Positions 31,888-63,040 of a stretch of 64,000 bases of DNA are shown piece by piece. This DNA comes from a virus (Duplodnaviria; Caudoviricetes), in the IMG/VR virus record IMGVR_UViG_3300013383_000002, positions 32,001-96,000 of that record. One strand, written 5' to 3'. Position 1 is the first letter of the stretch, and the number at the start of each line of letters is the position of its first letter. The notes beneath the pieces are model-generated. The model ran no database searches. It was not told the DNA's origin and saw only the letters and a list, made by a program, of their open reading frames with translations. The position numbers were made by a program, and so were the translations under genes.

Positions 31888-34236
31888 TCAAGCATTCAAA
31901 CTCACCAAATTCTGAATTTTTTCTTTATCTTTCAGCTTCATCGCTTTGATTCCCATCGTCGCGCGCGACAGCAGAGGAATTTCATCCATCTTTAGACGAA
32001 TTTGGGAGACGTTTGATACGACCAGGACTTCAGTATCGTCAGTCAACGGCAAAAAGTCACAAAGTCTATCGGATTGCTGAATTGACTTTCCCTTGGTCGC
32101 GCGCCCCGTAACAGAGAACTCACTAATCGAAGTCCGCTTCGCAAAGCCGTCCTCTGACGTAGATAGAATTTCTTTTGTCCCCTTCGGGATAACTCTCGCA
32201 CAAACAATATAATCTCCATCATTGAGTTTCATTCCAGTGACGCCGCGCGCAACACGTCCAATAGCACGGATATCAGAAGTGGAAATCATGATAAAGTTGC
32301 CAGAGTGAGACAAGATTCCAATATTTTCATCCCTCAGAATCAGAACAGAAACAATCGAATCGTTTTTATCAAGTTTTATCGCCTGCGCGCCATTACCTCT
32401 TTTCAAATTATATTCAGAGAGCGCGGACTTTTTCAAAACTCCGTTCTTCGTAATGAAGATAATGTTAGAGGATTGTTGCTCTTTTGAGAGAATGACGCTT
32501 GCGCGCACGTATTCATCCGACTGGAAAGAAACAAAAGTATTGAGATATTGTTTCTCGCCAACTGAGAAATCACCCATTTTCATTGAGTAGAAACGACCTT
32601 TGTCAGTAAAGAACAGAATCTCGTCTACATTTTCTCCCACCAACGTATCAACTACATATTCGCCCTTATCAAGCTTGAACTTTTGGCCGACACCGTTGCG
32701 TCGCTGAGAATAGAGGGTTGATGTCTCATTTACAAAAACCGCACCTTCATTTGTAAAAGAAAGAGCTAATTGCTTTCGCTCAATTGTTTCTTCTTCATTA
32801 GAAATATTTAGAATTTTTGTGCGCCGTGCGTCGCCAAATTTTTCAGCTACTTCGCGCAGACCTTTTTCAATTTCTTTCTTCAGAAGATTTTCATCGGCCA
32901 AGATGGCTTCAATGCGCGCGAGTTCCTTTTCTAGTTCCGCCTTCTCATTTGTTAATTTAGAAACATCAAGATGGGTAAGACGAGAGAGTTTTAGGTCAAG
33001 GATTGCCTTTGCTTGGGTTTCATCAATTCCAAGAAGATGTTGAAGCCCAATTGAAGCGTTCTTTGTATCAGAAGATTTCTTGATAATTTTGACCACTTCA
33101 TCAATCATTGAAATAGCTTTGATGAGTGCGTCGAGGATATGAAGGCGCGCGCGACACTTCCGGCGATCAAATTGGAAGCCGTTTACATAGACGGTTTTTT
33201 CATGGTCAAGATGCGCTTGAAAAAGTTCGCGCAATCCAAGCACCGCCGGCTTCCTCCCATCCACTAGAACCGTCATGTTTATTCCACTGAAACTTTCAAG
33301 AGAAGTCTCCTTATACAAGAGTTTCAAGACTTTTTCCGGAGAAGCGTTTTTAGTCAAATAAATTTCGTAATCTGGCTTTTTATGGGAAGCATCATTGACA
33401 TTATCAATTCCACAATTCGGCTCTTTTTCCAGAAGTTTTTGAATTTGTGCACTAATAGTTTCAGTATAAACCCCATAAGGTAATTCTCTAACGACTAGTG
33501 CGCGCTTTGCCTTGTCATATTCAATAACAGAACGGAGCTTGGCAGCAGCGCCGGTTCCTTCTTCAAGACTTTTCTTCACTTCATCTGCGTTCAAAAGGAG
33601 CGCGCCAGTTGCATAGTCCGGCATAACACAAATTTCTTCAAAAGGGATGTTCGGGTTCCAAAGAAGCTTAATTAGCGCTTTATTTACTTCTTTTAGGTTG
33701 AATTGAGGAATAGAACTGCTTAGCGCGATACCAAGGCCAACTGTTCCATTACAGATATTATAATAACCCTTCGATGGAGCAACTTTTGGATATTTTTCAG
33801 TTTCATCAAAATTTTCGCTCCATTCAAAAATTGTCTCTTTATCAATATCTCCGAAAAGATTATAACCGAGGGGGCTAAGACGAAGCTCAGTATAGCGCAT
33901 TGAAGCTTCATCTGACGTATTATTCAGAGTACCATTATTACCCTGACAATCTTCTAATGGATAACGCATTGCGAAGGGCTTGCTCATTCGCATATAAGTT
34001 CCATAGCAACTGCTATCGCCATGTTCATAATAATGTCCAAGAGCATCGCCGACTACACGAGCGCTTTTTACAAAAGGTTTAGATGGAATATTCTTTGTAA
34101 CAGCCATCTGACAATACATAAGCATCCGCGCGGATGGCTTTAGAAGGTCGCGCGCGTCACATATGGCGCGGTTCATAATGACATTGCCAGCATAACGAGT
34201 AAAACTATCTTCTACTATTTTCTTGATATCTGCCAT
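31888..34236 (-). CDS. gyrA: type IIA topoisomerase subunit A (gyrase A-like)
   Basis: KSARVVG, HGDSS and SMRYTE motifs; C-terminal pinwheel repeats with QRRNGVG. Confidence 0.9.
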   Translation of the reverse strand: MADIKKIVEDSFTRYAGNVIMNRAICDARDLLKPSARMLMYCQMAVTKNIPSKPFVKSARVVGDALGHYYEHGDSSCYGTYMRMSKPFAMRYPLEDCQGNNGTLNNTSDEASMRYTELRLSPLGYNLFGDIDKETIFEWSENFDETEKYPKVAPSKGYYNICNGTVGLGIALSSSIPQFNLKEVNKALIKLLWNPNIPFEEICVMPDYATGALLLNADEVKKSLEEGTGAAAKLRSVIEYDKAKRALVVRELPYGVYTETISAQIQKLLEKEPNCGIDNVNDASHKKPDYEIYLTKNASPEKVLKLLYKETSLESFSGINMTVLVDGRKPAVLGLRELFQAHLDHEKTVYVNGFQFDRRKCRARLHILDALIKAISMIDEVVKIIKKSSDTKNASIGLQHLLGIDETQAKAILDLKLSRLTHLDVSKLTNEKAELEKELARIEAILADENLLKKEIEKGLREVAEKFGDARRTKILNISNEEETIERKQLALSFTNEGAVFVNETSTLYSQRRNGVGQKFKLDKGEYVVDTLVGENVDEILFFTDKGRFYSMKMGDFSVGEKQYLNTFVSFQSDEYVRASVILSKEQQSSNIIFITKNGVLKKSALSEYNLKRGNGAQAIKLDKNDSIVSVLILRDENIGILSHSGNFIMISTSDIRAIGRVARGVTGMKLNDGDYIVCARVIPKGTKEILSTSEDGFAKRTSISEFSVTGRATKGKSIQQSDRLCDFLPLTDDTEVLVVSNVSQIRLKMDEIPLLSRATMGIKAMKLKDKEKIQNLVSLNA

Positions 34237-49435: not shown

Positions 49436-49840
49436 GGCGATGAAGTGGTTCTGTCACCAGTAGGAACCATGGAGCCTCTTCCAAGGTTTTGCGGTTACGT
49501 TCATAAGAACGGGAAAAATCCGTCTGGTTCTATCGAAAAACCGTTAGGAAAAAAGGTTATGGCCGTCCCGATATTTCGAGGCGAGTGCGCACGAAGCCGT
49601 TACCTTTTAAGTGGGCCATTGCTTCGTCTCTCAACGAAGTGGGTTATGAAAATCCTAGCATTGGCTAGGTGGACTAGGCGCGAGACGTTTAGCCCAAGCG
49701 ATGATACTATGTCACCGGGGCAATATCGGCGGTGTAGTGGAGCTTTTGTCGAGGGTTTGTAGATTTCCCACAGATTGCCTAGGGGCTACCTTGTAGGAGA
49801 CTGCCGAAAGAAAATCTACTATTGATTATCCTGCGCGCCT
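49436..49840 (+). ncRNA. compact OLE-like RNA
   Basis: Ordered motifs matching my recall of the OLE consensus (ACCGTTAGGA, TTAAGTG.GCCATTGC, GGGTTA..AAAATCCTA, GTGGACTAG, ACTATGT, GTGTAG, TTTTGT.GA, ATTGCCT.GG, GAGACT, CTA.TAT.GATTA), plus many paired stems. Confidence 0.65.
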
Positions 49841-50016: not shown

Positions 50017-50110
50017 GCTCCCATAGTGTAATGGCAACACACCCGGCTTATACCCGGCATTGGCTCCAGATTAGAGCACGTTCTTGGTTCGAGTCCAAGT
50101 GGGAGTACCA
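50017..50110 (+). tRNA. tRNA-Ile(TAT) with long variable arm
   Basis: GCTCCCA/TGGGAGT acceptor, loop CTTATAC, T-arm CTTGG-TTCGAGT-CCAAG, CCA. Confidence 0.85.
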
Positions 50111-51485: not shown

Positions 51486-51705
51486 AAAAAGGAGTTTGTT
51501 AGTCACACCAGTTTCGTGGTTCTGGAACAAAACCGCCTGGCGCAACTCCTATGGCGCTATATAAGTAGAATAGGCGTAGTCTGACATGACGAGACGTTCA
51601 GAAGTTTCGATGCGTGGGCTTATCTATAAAACTCATGCTGGGTCTTTGGGCCTTTTACCTCCTGTGTGAAACAAAAGGCTCAGACTTTTATAATTGGTGT
51701 ATTGA

Positions 51706-52305: not shown

Positions 52306-52390
52306 CTGCGCGTGGTGGAAATGGCATACACATCTGGTTCAAGCCCAGATGCCTTAGGGATTAAGAGTTCGACTCTCTTCGCGCAGACCA
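52306..52390 (+). tRNA. tRNA-Leu(CAA)
   Basis: CTGCGCG/CGCGCAG; loop TTCAAGC; long variable arm; CCA. Confidence 0.9.
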
Positions 52391-52470
52391 ACCAGTATTA
52401 TTGCTGGTGGGAATGCTACCAAAAGTGCATCCTTGGTCATGGGAGGTTGTAGGATAAATGACCTAATATT

Positions 52471-52540
52471 GCGCTGGTCGTCTAAAGGTAGGACATCGGA
52501 CTCATTATCCGAAGACAACGTTCGATTCGTTCGGGCGCAA
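52471..52540 (+). tRNA. tRNA with CAT anticodon (Met/Ile2), atypical
   Basis: TCGGA-CTCATTA-TCCGA; 4-bp T stem; no CCA; followed by a ribozyme. Confidence 0.7.
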
Positions 52541-52596
52541 GACATCTAAAAGAGAATACCTCCACGTGGTAGATGTCGGGTAACGCTAAATTCTCT
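52541..52596 (+). ncRNA. theta (minimal HDV-like) self-cleaving ribozyme
   Basis: P1 GACATCT/AGATGTC, P2 AGAGAAT/ATTCTCT, P3 ACC/GGT with loop TCCACGT, GG for P1.1, catalytic C in GCTAA; sits directly 3' of a tRNA. Confidence 0.85.
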
Positions 52597-53203
52597 TTGT
52601 ACCTTGAAAATAAAATACTTTAGAACTCGATGATAAACACTCCGCGACTAGGAGTGTCGAGGCGTCTTGGAAAGAGGATGGCAGACAACGAGCAAGGATA
52701 CTTGCAGATACTGACCAGTGCGCGCGACGTGAGTTGCGTGCCATAGAGGATGAACTCCCAATCCCACGAGACGGCATTGGGGTCAACGCAAGTAAAGGTA
52801 GGACGCGCGTCGCTAACGTAATAGAGGCTCTCAAGATAATTGAGGCTGAATCCTAATCTCCCTTAGCTGGTGACTGTGGGCGGAGCAATTTGGTTAGGAA
52901 ATAACCACAAGTTAGTTTGCTGTGAAGCGAAGAAATTCGTGTATAAGACGTGTATGAGAACTCTGAGTAGCCAAAGGCAAGCTCGTATATTATTTTTACA
53001 GCTATTATTATTGGAAAATGCTGAATGGTTGGTGAAAGGTTCTGGTAATCAATCCAGAAAAGACTATGCGCACGAAAGTGCGGCTATGAGAAGTATGCGC
53101 GGGACGCTGTGTATGCTCAGCCTCATGGTGCTTTTGACTGAATATGCTTGAAGTTGATTTCGGTAGGTTGAAGAACCCAAAGTATTTTATTTTCAGGGTA
53201 TAA
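52597..53203 (+). ncRNA. ROOL-like large ornate RNA (~607 nt)
   Basis: ~24-bp terminal helix TACCTTGAAAATAAAATACTTT/AAAGTATTTTATTTTCAGGGTA; internal GAGTAGC, GGTGAAAG, GGTAATCAATCC, GCTCAG and GACTGAATA motifs; no credible ORF. Confidence 0.7.
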
Positions 53204-53259
53204 GCCCTTTCGACGGACAGGAACGTTGGAAATTTTGAAATGATAGGAGAGGAACTATT

Positions 53260-53550
53260 ATGGCAAGATTTTATAGTGATATTACAAACAAGCTTTATGA
53301 CACCATGGCTGACCTAGAAGGAGCTGAAAAGTCTTTTATCGAGGCTAAGGAAGAGAAGAAGAGAAAGGAGCAGCAGAAGGCTGACGAGCGTAAGGCTCGC
53401 GCGCAGGAAGTTGAGGAGCTTCGTAAGGCATATATTGATGCCCGAAAGAATTACACTGATGCCCTTCAGCATTTTTGTGATGATTATGGAACTTTCCACA
53501 CTTCCGTTTCTTCTGATAATCTTTTTGATTTTCTTTGGAGCTGGATGTAA
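53260..53550 (+). CDS. hypothetical coiled-coil protein
   Basis: RBS; followed by a terminator. Confidence 0.75.
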   Translation: MARFYSDITNKLYDTMADLEGAEKSFIEAKEEKKRKEQQKADERKARAQEVEELRKAYIDARKNYTDALQHFCDDYGTFHTSVSSDNLFDFLWSWM

Positions 53551-53558
53551 GATTGAAT

Positions 53559-53587
53559 GGCGCCCTTAGATGGGCGCTTTTCTTTTA
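53559..53587 (+). terminator. intrinsic terminator
   Basis: GGCGCCC TTAGAT GGGCGCT TTTCTTTT. Confidence 0.75.
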
Positions 53588-53608
53588 TAAAGAAAGAGAG
53601 GAAATATT

Positions 53609-53809
53609 ATGACACTTTATTTTGACAATGGATTTGAGCCAAGACGCCCCCTGGGACATCCGAGCACTAAGCAAAACGCGTATCGTTTGATTTATGAATT
53701 TTTAGAGAAGAATAATTATAAGGCGCCGTATACAAGAGAGTGGACAAATGACATCAATGAAACTTGGATTGATGTTGGGAGCCATACCGAGTTTTTTATT
53801 TGGTGCTAA
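53609..53809 (+). CDS. hypothetical protein
   Basis: RBS; ends WIDVGSHTEFF. Confidence 0.7.
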   Translation: MTLYFDNGFEPRRPLGHPSTKQNAYRLIYEFLEKNNYKAPYTREWTNDINETWIDVGSHTEFFIWC

Positions 53810-53881
53810 ATTGATTGAGTTTTTATGGTACGTGACCACTTAGAAACAGAAAGGAAATATATCCCAGAAAAGGAGAATAAA

Positions 53882-54520
53882 ATGAAAAGAAATGAAGACC
53901 TCGGACTACTTCCGCTAGTCCAAATTCCGGAAAGCGCGAATTATTCACTCCCCGATGATAATCTCCTGTCGTTCTACAATGATTTGGAAGAACGATTACT
54001 TTGGGTGACAGATGGAATTGATAGCTGCTCTTTGAATATTATCCATTATATTTTGAAGTGGAATCGTGAAGATAAAGGAATTGAAGTTTCCGCGCGGAAG
54101 CCTATCAGACTTCTTATTTTTAGTCCCGGAGGCGAATTAGATGTTTTTACTGCCATTGGCAACATTATTCGTCTTTCAAAAACTCCTGTCATTGGTATCA
54201 ACATTTCTTGTGCTTATAGCGCCGCGGCGATGATACTTCTAATGTGCCATAAGAGATACGCTTTGAGTAATGATGTTTCTGTTCTTTTCCATCAGGGAAG
54301 TTGTTCTGGTATTCAGGGAACTTATGACCAGATTGCTAACTTTATGAAGGAATATGATGAGCAGGTTGCTCGTCTTTCTCAGGTTATTCTTGATAGAACT
54401 TCGTTTACAAAAGAAGAAGTAGATGAAAAGATGAAAAGTGACTGGTATGTGTCCGCGCGCGAAGGAGTCGAGCGTGGTGTATATGATGGTATCATTTCTT
54501 CTATTGATGAACTAATCTGA
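53882..54520 (+). CDS. clpP: ClpP-family protease
   Basis: IFSPGG, AYSAA (catalytic Ser), LFHQ (His), DWY..A.E...G..D. Confidence 0.85.
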   Translation: MKRNEDLGLLPLVQIPESANYSLPDDNLLSFYNDLEERLLWVTDGIDSCSLNIIHYILKWNREDKGIEVSARKPIRLLIFSPGGELDVFTAIGNIIRLSKTPVIGINISCAYSAAAMILLMCHKRYALSNDVSVLFHQGSCSGIQGTYDQIANFMKEYDEQVARLSQVILDRTSFTKEEVDEKMKSDWYVSAREGVERGVYDGIISSIDELI

Positions 54521-54530
54521 GGAGGTCTAA

Positions 54531-55361
54531 ATGGACTATACAGGAATTAGAGAAGTTTCGCTTAGTCAAGAAGAGTTAGCGCAATTTTATCAAGGGGAGT
54601 ATCCAATTCCCAACTTATTGGAGAACCAATACGTTTTTCTTCGTGGTGAAACGGGGGAAGTTGTGGATAAGCTCTTCTGGCGCGCAGGAAAACTTGAAAG
54701 AGTTCCTTATACTGTTTTTTCTTCTGATTTTATGGGAAAAATAAAGCCACGCAATCCAGAACAAGAGTGCGCCTTTCACCTTTTACACAGTCAAAACATT
54801 AGAGTAAAGTTGATTACTGGCCGATTTGGTTCTGGCAAATCCATGAGTATGATTGCGCAAGCTGTTGAAGCATTAGATAAGGGTGTAGTTGATAAAATAG
54901 TCTATGTTCGCAACAATATTGCTGTGCGCGACACCACTGAGCTAGGGGCACTTCCTGGATCAGAAATAGACAAATTATTACCATATTTGATGCAGTTCGC
55001 AGACCACGTCGGCGGCAAAGAAGCTCTTATAAGAATGATTTCTGAGGAGAAATTAGAACCAATTCATCTAGGATATTTGCGCGGACGAGACATCAGAAAT
55101 TCGATTATTTATGTTACAGAAGCACAAAATCTAACAGTAGACCATATCAAATTACTCCTTGGGCGAGTTGGAGAAGGGTCTTATCTTTATCTTGATGGAG
55201 ATTTTCACGCGCAAATTGACCGTTCTGTTTTTGAACGTTCTCCCGGCCTGAAGAGACTAATCGAGGTTTTAGCGGGTAATAAACTGTTTGGTTATGTAAA
55301 TCTAGTAAAGTCAGAGCGTTCTGAGGTTTCTGCCTTGGCTGATTTACTAGATGAGAATTGA
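54531..55361 (+). CDS. phoH: PhoH-family ATPase
   Basis: PRN.EQ, GRFGSGKS, GALPG, YLRGR, EAQN, GD..QID, RSE. Confidence 0.9.
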   Translation: MDYTGIREVSLSQEELAQFYQGEYPIPNLLENQYVFLRGETGEVVDKLFWRAGKLERVPYTVFSSDFMGKIKPRNPEQECAFHLLHSQNIRVKLITGRFGSGKSMSMIAQAVEALDKGVVDKIVYVRNNIAVRDTTELGALPGSEIDKLLPYLMQFADHVGGKEALIRMISEEKLEPIHLGYLRGRDIRNSIIYVTEAQNLTVDHIKLLLGRVGEGSYLYLDGDFHAQIDRSVFERSPGLKRLIEVLAGNKLFGYVNLVKSERSEVSALADLLDEN

Positions 55362-59280: not shown

Positions 59281-60363
59281 GTGAATAAGTTTCCAGATAG
59301 AGATACTTATCAGAAGATAAAGGATAAACATTTATTGGGCGCAGATGACATCAACGTCTTGGAAGATTATCCGGGATTAGAATGGAAGGGTGAATACTCT
59401 GAGACAGTAACTTATTATAAGGGCGCGATTATCTTTTATGAGAATGGCCTTTATGTAATGACCAGTTATGGCGCTACCGGTGCTATTCCTGGTTTTGATG
59501 AAGAGTGGGAACTTTTTGGTAAATATGGTGTTACAGAGGATGATATAAAGACAGGACTTGGATATACTCCGGCTGATAGCACAAAATATCTTCCACTAAT
59601 TGGAGGCACTCTTACTGGTAATTTGACTGGTAAATATATTACCGGAACTTGGCTTCAAGCAACAGGAGCTGGCCATCTGGCTACTGTGCCTGAAAAAATT
59701 CCTGTTTTTGATAGTGCAGGCTGGATTTATTATAGAACCCCATCTGAGCTTTTGAGCGATATCGGTGGGAGTTCGGGATATACCTTGACGGAAGATGATA
59801 AGACAGAAATAGCGGGGAAAGTTGCCGAAGACGGTGTTGAATTTACTTTAGTTGATATGCCTACCGGATCAGGACTCCCGACTAGTACAACGAGCGATGC
59901 GGGGAAGCTGCTGCAGGTCGGCGCGGACGGCACGGCCGAGTGGGGCGACAAGCTGCCGACGGCGCTGAAAAACCCAAAGACACTGACATTTACGGGGGCG
60001 GCGACGGGGACCTACGACGGCTCTGCGGCGCTGACGGTAAACATTCCGACGGGCGGGTCTTCCGGCGGCTCCGGCGGGTCGCTGAAGGCGTTGAGCCGCG
60101 TGTCCTCGTACATCGGCATCCCGGCGGCGGACCTGCCGGAAAACGGCGTTGTGTGGGTGAGCTTCGGGGCGGGCGAAAACATGGAGCTGTACACCGGCAC
60201 GATCACGATACAGGACGCCGGAATCGCGACGAGCGACATGCTTGCGATCACAAACGGGACGGTAAACCCGCTCAATCAGGTCGCGTGGGTCAGCGACGGA
60301 ATCGCATTTTACGGGATGACGACGTCGAACTACCGCGGCGTGTACATGGTCGTAAGCGGATAG
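59281..60363 (+). CDS. chimeric tail-fibre/structural protein (start may be slightly upstream)
   Basis: LGYTP, YLPLIGGTLTG, TYDGSAA; GC content jumps mid-gene at ~59890. Confidence 0.7.
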   Translation: MNKFPDRDTYQKIKDKHLLGADDINVLEDYPGLEWKGEYSETVTYYKGAIIFYENGLYVMTSYGATGAIPGFDEEWELFGKYGVTEDDIKTGLGYTPADSTKYLPLIGGTLTGNLTGKYITGTWLQATGAGHLATVPEKIPVFDSAGWIYYRTPSELLSDIGGSSGYTLTEDDKTEIAGKVAEDGVEFTLVDMPTGSGLPTSTTSDAGKLLQVGADGTAEWGDKLPTALKNPKTLTFTGAATGTYDGSAALTVNIPTGGSSGGSGGSLKALSRVSSYIGIPAADLPENGVVWVSFGAGENMELYTGTITIQDAGIATSDMLAITNGTVNPLNQVAWVSDGIAFYGMTTSNYRGVYMVVSG

Positions 60364-60371
60364 GAGGGCAT

Positions 60372-60911
60372 ATGGGCATCACAAAACTCAAGGATATCGA
60401 CACGAGCGGCCTGAGCGAGGCCGACCTGCAGACGCTGCAGGCGACGGAGGCGCGATACGAGGCTGCAGAAAAGCACCGGCCGCTGACGGTCGGCGAGGTT
60501 GCCGGGATGCTGATCCGGCAGCAGATCAACACGCTGGCGGTGGACGACCAGACGGCGCTGCGGATGATCGAGTTTTATCCGGCGTGGAAGAGCGGCAAGG
60601 CCTACGCAGCGGGCGACAAGTTTGTCTCCGGCGGCAAGCTCTACAAGGTGCTGCAGGCGCACACGTCGCAGGAGACGTGGGTGCCGGGCGCAGCGGGGAC
60701 GGAGAGTCTGTACGAGCGCATCGACGAGGAGCACGACGGTACAAAGTACGATCCGATCCCCTACGACGGAAACATGGCGCTCGAAAACGGCAAGTATTAC
60801 ACGCAGGGCGGCGTGCTGTACCACTGCACGCGCGACACCGGTAATCCCGTCTACAACGCGCTGAGCGAGCTTGTGGGCATCTACGTGGAGGTGGTCAGCG
60901 ATGGCGACTAA
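60372..60911 (+). CDS. carbohydrate-binding (CBM5/12-like) phage protein
   Basis: GGAGG RBS; YPAW..GKAY..GD....GKLYKVLQAHTSQ..W.P. Confidence 0.7.
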   Translation: MGITKLKDIDTSGLSEADLQTLQATEARYEAAEKHRPLTVGEVAGMLIRQQINTLAVDDQTALRMIEFYPAWKSGKAYAAGDKFVSGGKLYKVLQAHTSQETWVPGAAGTESLYERIDEEHDGTKYDPIPYDGNMALENGKYYTQGGVLYHCTRDTGNPVYNALSELVGIYVEVVSDGD

Positions 60912-61914
60912 GGTGCTGGTCAAGGACGGGAAGCTTGCGACGTATGGGGGTAAGGTCGTGGAGGTGGAGGCCGGGGCAGATATCGGCCTCGGGATCACAG
61001 GCGCAGCAGCCGGGAAGCTGGTAAAAATTGTAACAGTCGACGAAAACGGCGTCCCGACAAAGCTGGGCACGGGGAGCGCAGTGCTCGCCGCCGCTCCGGC
61101 GTTTGCCGCAAGCGTCGCGGCGATGACGGACACGAGCAAGGTGTACATCGGGGCCAATGGGCATCTGTGGGCCTATCAGCAGTCGACCGAGCAGCAGGCA
61201 GCTGCAGAGAATGTTTTTTCAAAGTCCGGCGTGCAGCTCAACATGCGGCTAAAGACAAACGGCGTAGCTACTGGCGCGCAGGACGGCATGGCGATCTCCG
61301 ACTTTATTCCGGTGGACCTCAGCACAGACCCGTTCTGGGTCTGGTTCAAGGGTTGGAATCTGAAGGCTTCGGAAGGATGGAGCTTATACACCAAGGTGTA
61401 TTATTACGATTCTAGTAAAGCGTGCCTCGGTGGCTACGACATGAGCGTCCCGCCCGCGACGCTGAATTACATCAACATGATCGACGATGGGGATTACAAA
61501 AAGTTTAAGGCGGGGTATGCGGAGACAACTGCTATGGATGCGTCCACTGAGGCAAAACTGAGCTTTTACTCCAATATCAAGTACATCCGTTTTAACATGC
61601 TCGTGGTCCCCGGCAGCACCAGTCCCGCAGCGGCGACGGAGTCGAATCTGGATGGGATCGGAATCTATCTCAACCAGAACCCGAACGAGACGTCCGAAGT
61701 GGTGACGAACGCATGGGCAGATACCGGCATTACCTACGCGCAGACGGCGCTGACGCAGGCGGACAAGGAAGCGATTGCCGAGATCGTGCTGGAGCAGCTG
61801 GGCAGTCCTTACGTCACGGCCGCCAATGTGTTGGGAATGCCGGAGAGCGGGACAATCGTGTATGCGGATGCAAGCGGTGTGCTCCCCGATGCGGAGCCGA
61901 TCGGGGAGGTATAG
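60901..61914 (+). CDS. hypothetical tail-associated protein
   Basis: GGAGG before ATG 60901; LGITGAAAG..VKI..VDENG.P. Confidence 0.65.
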   Translation: MATKVLVKDGKLATYGGKVVEVEAGADIGLGITGAAAGKLVKIVTVDENGVPTKLGTGSAVLAAAPAFAASVAAMTDTSKVYIGANGHLWAYQQSTEQQAAAENVFSKSGVQLNMRLKTNGVATGAQDGMAISDFIPVDLSTDPFWVWFKGWNLKASEGWSLYTKVYYYDSSKACLGGYDMSVPPATLNYINMIDDGDYKKFKAGYAETTAMDASTEAKLSFYSNIKYIRFNMLVVPGSTSPAAATESNLDGIGIYLNQNPNETSEVVTNAWADTGITYAQTALTQADKEAIAEIVLEQLGSPYVTAANVLGMPESGTIVYADASGVLPDAEPIGEV

Positions 61915-61915
61915 C

Positions 61916-63040
61916 ATGGCGTATGTGTACAAAGGCCTTATCCCAGAAAATATAGCCCCGCCGGGGGCGACGGGGCTGCGGCTTACGAACAAGCGGGGGA
62001 CTGCGGTCGCCTCGTCGAAGCTGCCGCAGCGGATGAAATATCCAAGCAGCGGACGGCAGTATAGCTTCCTCGCGTTGTCGGATGTGCATATCACATACAA
62101 CACAGCGGCAGAGGACTTCCAACGCGCGCTGCAATTCGCGGAAAACAACGACGTCAAATTTACCTGCATCTGCGGGGACCTGACTGACTATGGAACACCG
62201 GCCCAAATGAGCCAATACAAGGCGATCGTCGACGCAAACGCGCCAACAAAGCCGGTGTATGCGATCGCTGGGAACCACGAAACAATCAACGCGGCAGTTG
62301 TGGACAGTTATATCCAGCAATATACCGGTAAACCTCTGTACTACTCCTTCGGCGTCGGTGCGGACGGTGCGCTGAAAGAAAATGACTTTTCGCACGCCGT
62401 GAAAACCTACGGTGATACCGTGCAGGATGTTTTTGTGATGGTCGGAAATTACGCCTGCTATGACCAGACGGTAAAGGATTTCCTGCCGGGGGAACAGTTT
62501 TCAACGGCGGAACTGCAATGGCTGTACGAGACGCTGGAGGCAAATAGGAGCAAGCGCTGCATCGTGTTTCAGCACATCTTCCCATGGGGCGGAGTCGGGA
62601 ATGCCGGGGGCTATTACAAGTCCAATTTCTGGCGGGGGAGCACCGAGGGTACACAAAAACAAGCGAATTGTTTCGAAGCACTCATGAAGCACTACAAGAA
62701 CGTGATCTGGTTCCACGGGCATTCCCACCTGAAATTTTATCTGCAGGAGATCGACAAAAGGGCAAATTATTCCGCCGAAGATGGCTACCGCTCCGTACAC
62801 ATCCCGTCACTGTCCGTACCGCGGGATATCCAGAGCGGCGCGCTTACGACGATCTACGCAGACTCCGAGGGTTATCAGATCGATGTTTTTGCGGGCAATC
62901 TGGTGCTGCGGGGACGAGACTTTATCGACAACGGCAACGACGGGACATGGCTGCCGATCGCGACGTACAAGATCGATACGCCAATCACAGAGGTATCCGC
63001 CGGAACCTTTACAGACCCGTCTGGGATCATCACGACATAG
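61916..63040 (+). CDS. calcineurin-like metallophosphoesterase
   Basis: SDVH, CGDL, GNHE, FQH and HGHSH motifs. Confidence 0.88.
   Translation: MAYVYKGLIPENIAPPGATGLRLTNKRGTAVASSKLPQRMKYPSSGRQYSFLALSDVHITYNTAAEDFQRALQFAENNDVKFTCICGDLTDYGTPAQMSQYKAIVDANAPTKPVYAIAGNHETINAAVVDSYIQQYTGKPLYYSFGVGADGALKENDFSHAVKTYGDTVQDVFVMVGNYACYDQTVKDFLPGEQFSTAELQWLYETLEANRSKRCIVFQHIFPWGGVGNAGGYYKSNFWRGSTEGTQKQANCFEALMKHYKNVIWFHGHSHLKFYLQEIDKRANYSAEDGYRSVHIPSLSVPRDIQSGALTTIYADSEGYQIDVFAGNLVLRGRDFIDNGNDGTWLPIATYKIDTPITEVSAGTFTDPSGIITT

Follow-up and report, generated by a model that had tools for sequence, protein, structure and literature searches.

The Caudoviricetes genome IMGVR_UViG_3300013383_000002, a record of 121,436 bp in IMG/VR that carries direct terminal repeats and is rated 100% complete, holds an RNA gene of 607 nucleotides (nt) that we examined within positions 32,001 to 96,000 of the record. 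This stretch of 64,000 nt is called the window below, and coordinates given without a locus number are positions in it. A first-pass annotation made from the letters of the sequence had named the span 52597-53203 as a ROOL RNA rather than a GOLLD RNA and had pointed to the setting of such RNAs near transfer RNA (tRNA) genes in phages. Both statements proved right: the span matches ROOL, and it comes last among the RNA genes of a 4-kb island, with six tRNA genes on the same strand and a drum RNA upstream of it (ARAGORN and Rfam), in a complete phage genome. A tRNA-Met and a putative self-cleaving ribozyme directly precede it, so that the core of the locus reads as follows.

52469-52541, + strand: tRNA-Met (CAT) without an encoded CCA, its 3′ end at the predicted ribozyme cleavage site (ARAGORN; Rfam tRNA at 52471-52539, 48.8 bits)
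52541-52597, + strand: putative P4-less, hepatitis delta virus (HDV)-like ribozyme of the theta type, about 57 nt (sub-threshold match to RF02682, descriptor scan, covariation in relatives)
52597-53203, + strand: ROOL RNA, full length (RF03087 match at 52602-53197, sole copy in the genome, covariation)
52597-52621, + strand: 5′ arm of the ROOL closing helix P1 (inverted-repeat scan, compensatory changes)
53179-53203, + strand: 3′ arm of the ROOL closing helix P1 (inverted-repeat scan, compensatory changes)

A full-length ROOL RNA closed by a 25-bp helix

A cmscan search of the whole window against Rfam 15 placed ROOL (RF03087) at 52602-53197 on the + strand with 273.8 bits (E = 1.4e-61), far above the gathering score of 99.1 bits, and the match was untruncated, covering positions 1-574 of the 574 in the model. 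This was the only ROOL copy that the Rfam scan returned from the whole 121-kb genome. GOLLD gave no match at the gathering threshold in the window and none at E<=10 in 52440-53320, and no other Rfam family was above threshold in the ROOL span; at E<=10 the only additional matches in the span were weak ones, to drum (17.1 bits) and to drz-agam-1, the latter entering from the ribozyme. Thus, the comparison of ROOL and GOLLD models by cmscan, which the first-pass annotation had proposed as a check, decided for ROOL.

The arms of ROOL P1 are 25 nt each, lie 557 nt apart (inverted-repeat scan) and are 92% Watson-Crick complementary. Because the two apparent mismatches beside the 23 Watson-Crick pairs are G-U wobbles, all 25 positions pair, and the near-perfect terminal helix of about 24 bp that had been read from the sequence is real, with 25 bp and with its coordinates exact. 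Within 52550-53260 this was the sole long-range inverted repeat except for one 12-nt A/T-rich repeat, and a rough calculation puts the occurrence of a 25-mer with no more than 2 mismatches in 700 nt at far below one in 10^5 trials. The true P1 reaches 5-6 bp past the Rfam match at each end, so that the ends 52597/53203 fit better than 52602/53197. The P1 of the model is A/U-rich, and cmscan set this helix two bases out of register; when the cmscan alignment was mapped literally, standard pairs were found at 119 of 153 model positions, with register slips in P1 and several other helices. For this reason the structure derived with RNAalifold from the window copy and its closest relatives was used for the fold tests described below. 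P1 might also be read as a stem for RNase III processing of the kind found in ribosomal RNA (rRNA) precursors; we set this reading aside, P1 being part of the fold of solved ROOLs.

The blocks GAGTAGC (52965), GGTGAAAG (53031), GGTAATCAATCC (53044) and GCTCAG (53115), picked out before any model was consulted, each occur once and coincide with conserved positions of the Rfam ROOL consensus in the cmscan alignment, and the many internal hairpins seen at the same time are borne out by a minimum free energy of −203.6 kcal/mol for 52597-53203 (z-score −4.57 against 20 dinucleotide shuffles). Two open reading frames (ORFs) overlap the span, one of 93 amino acids on the + strand and one of 82 amino acids on the − strand; since each is broken by 1-8 stops in sister phages, 52597-53203 is non-coding.

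Seven sister phages were recovered through a neighbouring protein of 557 amino acids (78-80% amino-acid identity). All seven carry a full-length ROOL at the same position (272-286 bits), and the eight ROOLs of this clade are 95% identical by column. RNAalifold on these eight sequences returned the ROOL architecture with 16 pairs changed on both sides, 3 of them in P1, where pairing was kept through the double changes UA/AU, UA/CG and CG/UA (columns 5/615, 22/598 and 23/597 of the clade alignment). More distant ROOLs were fetched by the conserved loop motif GUAAUCAAUCC, and 16 were confirmed by Rfam with 271-350 bits. A second pattern, GTGAAA-N5-9-GTAATCAATCC, returned 101 loci and was abandoned: of its low-identity loci 20 were scanned, and none of these was ROOL, the matches being due to chance. 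By blastn the ROOL span matched none of 50,697 phage records, and the 557-amino-acid neighbour found nothing by tblastn against 50,697 phage records or in a scan of 185,579 species genomes.

A test of the fold independent of Infernal applied the clade-derived structure to a sequence-only MAFFT alignment of 17 ROOLs, 47-56% identical to the window copy. In this alignment 79.8% of cells were paired, compared with 38-43% when the 3′ partners were slid by 1-3 columns, and 144 of the 188 pairs changed on both sides. The covariation score was 0.536 against 0.12-0.15 for the slid controls, and none of 500 shuffles reached the observed values. Covariation, on which the first-pass annotation had let the reality of the structure depend, is thus strong both in the clade and across distant ROOLs. 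We conclude that 52597-53203 is a bona fide ROOL RNA, typical though divergent, and that its fold is conserved, covarying and closed by a 25-bp helix.

The putative theta-type ribozyme upstream of ROOL

Downstream of the acceptor stem of tRNA-Met the sequence continues as GCGCAAG/ACATC, without CCA. Here RF02682 (HDV-F-prausnitzii) aligns to 52541-52597 over model positions 1-74, with the 15-nt P4 of the model reduced to 1 nt, and this alignment, together with a descriptor, gives the helices and loops as follows.

52541-52547/52571-52577, + strand: ribozyme P1, GACAUCU/AGAUGUC, 7 bp
52550-52558/52589-52597, + strand: ribozyme P2, AAAGAGAAU/AUUCUCUUU, 9 bp
52558-52560/52568-52570, + strand: ribozyme P3, ACC/GGU, 3 bp, with the loop L3 reading UCCACGU
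52578-52580, + strand: GG for P1.1
52586, + strand: predicted catalytic C, within GCUAA, opening J4/2; invariant in 42 of 42 relatives

This is the sole such site in the 121-kb genome, and the chance expectation of the core pattern is 0.03 in the window. The first base of the ribozyme, G1, is at 52541 and is also the last base of the tRNA-Met called by ARAGORN (offset −1). Theta ribozymes are minimal P4-less HDV-like ribozymes of gut Caudoviricetes whose G1 lies within 1 nt, and at most 5 nt, of the 3′ end of phage tRNAs that usually lack CCA (PMC10879173). To place the window site among its relatives we scanned IMG/VR for the core, which gave >116 sites; ribozyme P1 and P2 were placed by the descriptor at 90 of them, yielding 67 unique sequences. 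A tRNA ended −2 to +1 nt from G1 in 43 of the 67, the offset of −1 seen in the window was the modal one (30 of 43), and tRNA-Met was the commonest tRNA partner.

Across 42 of these relatives the double pseudoknot was 94.3% paired, a percentage inflated by the pre-filtering of these sequences for P1/P2 complementarity. Both-side changes affected 6 of 7 pairs in P1 and 8 of 8 in P2, and the P1/P2 covariation score was 0.742, compared with at most 0.17 after sliding; the complementarity filter does not account for the way in which P1 and P2 diversify around a core that stays invariant. Nested folding of the ribozyme was uninformative (z = −0.8) because the fold is a pseudoknot. Like the filter, two further points count against the assignment. 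The RF02682 score was 25.9 bits, below the gathering value of 44; as the model includes a P4 that minimal ribozymes lack, this weakens the claim but does not exclude it, and Rfam 15 gave no match to a P4-less HDV-type family at the site. In addition, the first pair of the window ribozyme is G-C and not the commoner G-U (11 versus 26 of the 42 relatives). On balance we infer that 52541-52597 is a P4-less HDV-like ribozyme of the theta type that matches the published definition (PMC10879173) and for which self-cleavage is predicted.

The ribozyme and ROOL share a base: position 52597 both ends ribozyme P2 and begins ROOL P1, without a spacer. The same arrangement occurs in the clade members L002, L005, L077 and L100. 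With a looser descriptor a theta ribozyme ended 0-10 nt before ROOL at 6 of 46 distinct loci, against a background of 0.002 per equal length, and this descriptor found no ribozyme 3′ of ROOL in the window or at any of the 46 loci. Two of the six ribozyme-headed ROOLs are unrelated and have no tRNA directly upstream (ribozymes at L138:6636-6693 and L203:11972-12030, ending 5-10 nt before ROOL), and these orphan theta ribozymes seem to serve ROOL alone. Seen from the ribozyme side, 9 of 115 theta loci had a ROOL somewhere in the fetched flank, always on the same strand. Thus, theta-ROOL pairing recurs and is a minority arrangement. Our literature search found no paper linking ROOL with HDV-like or theta ribozymes. 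Both are known families, and the modest interest of the locus is the fusion of tRNA, ribozyme and ROOL.

The clade also contains a natural replacement for the ribozyme. In five sisters (L003, L004, L006, L007 and L008) an element of about 135-157 nt (L003:4982-5138) lies between tRNA-Met and ROOL; it contains a perfect TATAAT some 35 nt ahead of P1 and matched no Rfam family. The final ~54 nt of the element are found again, with about 90% identity, some 55 nt upstream of two distant ROOLs (L064:1994-2047 and L199:4253-4305) whose own sequences are only about 50% identical. The element resembles a conserved module serving ROOL as promoter or leader. The five sisters show that the ribozyme is not required for ROOL, and the exchange of ribozyme and promoter-like module points to a defined 5′ end near P1 as the feature that counts.

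These data bear on the most serious alternative, in which the ribozyme is a trimmer of tRNA 3′ ends, the role published for theta ribozymes, and nothing more, its adjacency to ROOL is incidental, and the ROOL 5′ end is made by host RNases or the ribozyme is later removed. Most theta ribozymes with the same core are linked to tRNAs with no ROOL following, only the window-clade locus among the nine with a flanking ROOL has it abutting the matched ribozyme, and five sister phages manage without a ribozyme. Such a trimmer fits poorly, however, with tRNA-less theta ribozymes placed 5-10 nt before two unrelated ROOLs, with the frequency of ribozymes at ROOL loci relative to background, and with a ribozyme P2 that ends on the first base of ROOL P1. 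We therefore regard this alternative as unlikely, although it is the one that survives best.

A reading that we consider slightly more likely than not is that a single theta cut would do two jobs, maturing the 3′ end of tRNA-Met and launching a ribozyme-capped ROOL with a 5′-OH. HDV-type ribozymes cleave at their own 5′ end. Given this and the absence of a spacer, the tRNA would be freed and the ribozyme would stay on ROOL as a folded 5′-OH cap. If this is true, the supply of cage RNA would be tied one-to-one to the release of tRNA-Met, each cage could carry up to eight ribozyme domains, and some orphan theta ribozymes would exist to make ROOL ends; should the link hold broadly, it would supply a job for part of the many theta ribozymes that are not associated with tRNAs.

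Proposed transcription, processing and assembly

The features that frame transcription of the locus are given here.

51666-51694, + strand: nearest upstream sigma-70-like promoter candidate, GTGAAA-17-TATAAT (consensus scan only)
52306-52390, + strand: tRNA-Leu (CAA), second-to-last tRNA of the island (ARAGORN)
53208-53236, + strand: terminator-like but weak hairpin of 8 pairs, 2 of them G-U, with AUUUU behind it; may mark the ROOL 3′ end or a pause site (fold)
53260-53550, + strand: orf96, a small Lys/Glu-rich protein with no Pfam family (ORF calls, Pfam scan)

The tRNAs found within 6 kb of 24 ROOLs were all on the ROOL strand, with at least 2 such tRNAs at 23 of the 24 loci. In the window the promoter candidate at 51666-51694 would drive an HNH ORF, tRNA-Leu, tRNA-Met, the ribozyme and ROOL; the consensus scan placed stronger candidates farther upstream (48992, 50899 and 51115) and no promoter-like site on the + strand between 51694 and ROOL. 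Co-transcription of ROOL with tRNAs was suggested by Weinberg 2017 (PMC5737381), and the window supports this idea by sequence evidence. The island has other occupants. The HNH endonuclease ORF (Pfam PF01844; 51706-52302) ends 4 nt before tRNA-Leu and has homologues in the tRNA islands of several other ROOL phages, the drum RNA (RF02958, 53.5 bits) lies at 49696-49822 and is present in the sister phages too, and a tRNA-Ile (UAU) at 50017-50110 was called at 94 nt, about 20 nt over the usual length, and may carry an insertion or a long extra arm.

Downstream, the terminator scan did not report the hairpin at 53208-53231, whose folding energy of −8.5 kcal/mol is no better than that of shuffles. 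The sisters retain this hairpin, and in L004 and L007 a double change turns one U-A pair into C-G. Behind it come orf96 and the genes of a ClpP-like protease and a PhoH-like ATPase (53260-55361). With this order of genes, ROOL might work in cis: it would form the very large structured leader of an orf96-ClpP-PhoH messenger and would not be a free RNA acting in trans. The terminator scan has its first strong terminator (53559-53578 with a T-run) after orf96, so that only the weak hairpin separates ROOL from orf96; the 56-nt spacer and its ribosome-binding site are conserved in 8 of 8 clade members; and homologues of orf96, ClpP and PhoH are present in some distant ROOL phages, with the trio at 35-45% identity in L039 and parts of it in L056, L019 and L095. 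In distant phages, however, the distance between orf96 and ROOL is 1.4-7.6 kb, with orf96 on one side or the other, a variability that looks like shared ancestry and not like a functional link, the next gene at most ROOL loci is a tRNA and not an ORF, and ROOL RNAs assemble in trans without protein (PMC12286853). We consider a leader function very unlikely, and orf96 as a partner protein of ROOL was set aside because distance and side vary in the distant phages. The PhoH protein matched Lactococcus 949-type phages and a human faecal phage at only 40-44%, too weak for a host assignment. Farther downstream, at 60000-62500, a block of ~60% G+C with Gly/Ala/Thr-rich, fibre-like ORFs stands out from the 38% G+C of the phage and may be foreign DNA.

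For the free RNA, the solved ROOL structures indicate what it may become. As seen by cryo-EM, the ROOL monomer is flat, and protein-free assembly yields D4 octamers for the env-120 and E. faecalis RNAs and hexamers for that of L. salivarius, which has an ultrashort apical stem; these assemblies form at nanomolar concentration (PMC12286853; PMC12990946). The corresponding elements of the window copy are listed below; the P7 stem was assigned from the Rfam structure and the text of the same two papers.

52827-52846, + strand: P7 in the numbering of Kretsch, an apical hairpin of about 7 bp in the long form, its loop reading GAUAA (RNAalifold; columns 231-239/245-253 of the clade alignment)
52868-52871, + strand: loop L8, UGGU, one side of kissing contact B4 (covarying partner across ROOLs)
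52904-52907, + strand: J8/6, ACCA, partner of L8 (covarying partner across ROOLs)
52977-53020, + strand: variable A/U-rich linker (most variable, indel-rich stretch of the eight clade ROOLs; aligns to an unstructured Rfam loop)

The L8-J8/6 pairing is the best-conserved bridge of the cage, B4 of Kretsch 2025 (PMC12286853) and the 'pseudoknot' of Weinberg 2017 (PMC5737381). Across ROOLs it appears as the series UGGCA/UGCCA, UGGUA/UACCA, UGGUG/CACCA and UGGU/ACCA, and across 16 ROOLs the variable base of L8 changes in step with its partner: where it is C the partner is G (3 of 3), and where it is U the partner is A (12 of 13). In this clade the junction is offset by 1 nt, and a test of the bridge in register (helix 20) therefore did not succeed. 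The stretch corresponding to the A/U-rich linker, which in ROOLs separates the two halves, is disordered inside the cage in solved ROOLs. The long 3′ hairpin at 53094-53131 ends in an apical GACG where other ROOLs have UCGCU or UAGCU, which may alter the contact between half-cages. By analogy with the solved ROOLs, the window ROOL would be expected to assemble into a closed cage, and the long apical P7 stem favours an octamer.

Taken together, we propose that ROOL closes the series of RNA genes in a phage tRNA operon, is processed by the ribozyme and forms a cage, and we give this explanation as a whole a probability of about 0.85. The operon would be transcribed as one precursor. A ribozyme cut between A52540 and G52541 would release tRNA-Met for end repair and CCA addition and would leave an RNA of ~660 nt, ribozyme plus ROOL, with a 5′-OH and a compact double-pseudoknot cap. 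The weak hairpin near 53236, or else the strong terminator that follows orf96, would set the ROOL 3′ end, and the RNA would then fold flat and self-assemble into a closed cage, probably an octamer. The observed part of this account comprises family membership, the covarying fold, the non-coding span, the co-orientation with tRNAs, and the sequence features and geometry of the ribozyme.

Several considerations weigh against the proposal. Transcription, cleavage, the RNA ends and the oligomer state are all deduced from sequence. The five sisters have a promoter-like module in place of the ribozyme, and among the ROOL loci fetched by the ROOL motif a ribozyme stands at the 5′ end only in the clade of the window. 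The terminator scan found no strong terminator between ROOL and orf96. As for the cage, a per-sequence shuffle test of L8/J8-6 complementarity was not significant, a test that has no power on segments of 13-15 nt. A 4-bp symmetric, self-complementary kissing loop in L18 (bridge B6) joins the two half-shells in solved ROOLs (PMC12286853). By a mapping onto the Rfam structure taken from the published text, the loop corresponding to L18 is GACG in the window and in L110, L097, L064 and L019 and UAGCU or UCGCU in the others, so that the symmetric kissing loop is not evident, only the CG dinucleotide of GACG being self-complementary. Neither a 4-bp palindrome in L18 nor the L2/L13 contact was located in the window ROOL.

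The weakest alternative, that the span codes for a protein or is some other large RNA, be it GOLLD, OLE or a group I or group II intron, draws on a size and an ornate folding that fit several classes and on the two overlapping ORFs, and it is ruled out by the Rfam scans, which put no other family above threshold, and by the breaks in those ORFs in the sisters.

As for function, one possibility, to which we attach little confidence, is that ROOL provides an abundant nuclease-resistant assembly that would titrate, or shield against, a host RNA-directed factor while phage tRNAs are expressed. ROOL is among the very few natural RNAs known to make protein-free cages, and, while the window copy leaves the definition of the family unchanged, it offers a clean anatomy in a complete genome of virulent type: one proposed precursor transcript, a tRNA, a predicted self-cleaving ribozyme, a cage RNA, and sisters in which a promoter-like module takes the place of the ribozyme. 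With this exchange come matched constructs on which any effect of a 5′ extension on assembly can be examined.

Comparison with known systems

The window copy shares with the ROOL family (RF03087) its multi-stem covarying architecture, the conserved blocks, the variable A/U-rich linker and the L8/J8-6 contact, as well as the phage and tRNA-array setting and a full-length covariance-model match. Its 607 nt closed by a terminal P1 fall within the size of the family, about 550-660 nt. Relative to other ROOLs with the GUAAUCAAUCC loop it belongs to a divergent subclade, at 47-56% identity and with a score at the low end of the 271-350 bit range. Its P1 has 25 bp, compared with 16 modelled, and it differs from known ROOLs in having a theta ribozyme, as predicted here, fused at its 5′ end. 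The likeness to GOLLD is one of kind: GOLLD too is a large RNA of phage tRNA islands that forms RNA-only cages (PMC12286853), whereas the cage of the window ROOL is expected by analogy. GOLLD differs in being >800 nt long and forming 14-mers, and neither its sequence nor its structure matches in the window.

With the theta ribozymes described by Kienbeck et al. 2024 (PMC10879173) the window ribozyme shares a length of ~57 nt, the helices P1, P2, P3 and P1.1 without P4, a catalytic C that opens J4/2, and a G1 at the 3′ end of a phage tRNA that lacks CCA; that study does not mention ROOL or GOLLD. The window ribozyme differs in that its 3′ end runs directly into a structured RNA of 607 nt, so that the attached 'trailer' is itself a functional RNA. 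A parallel to such an arrangement is provided by the HDV-like ribozymes at the 5′ end of the RNAs of R2 and other retrotransposons without long terminal repeats, which cleave at their own 5′ end, free the downstream RNA from a co-transcript and remain on it as a structured 5′-OH cap. Those are eukaryotic protein-coding elements co-transcribed with rRNA, whereas in the window a tRNA lies upstream of the ribozyme and a non-coding RNA lies downstream.

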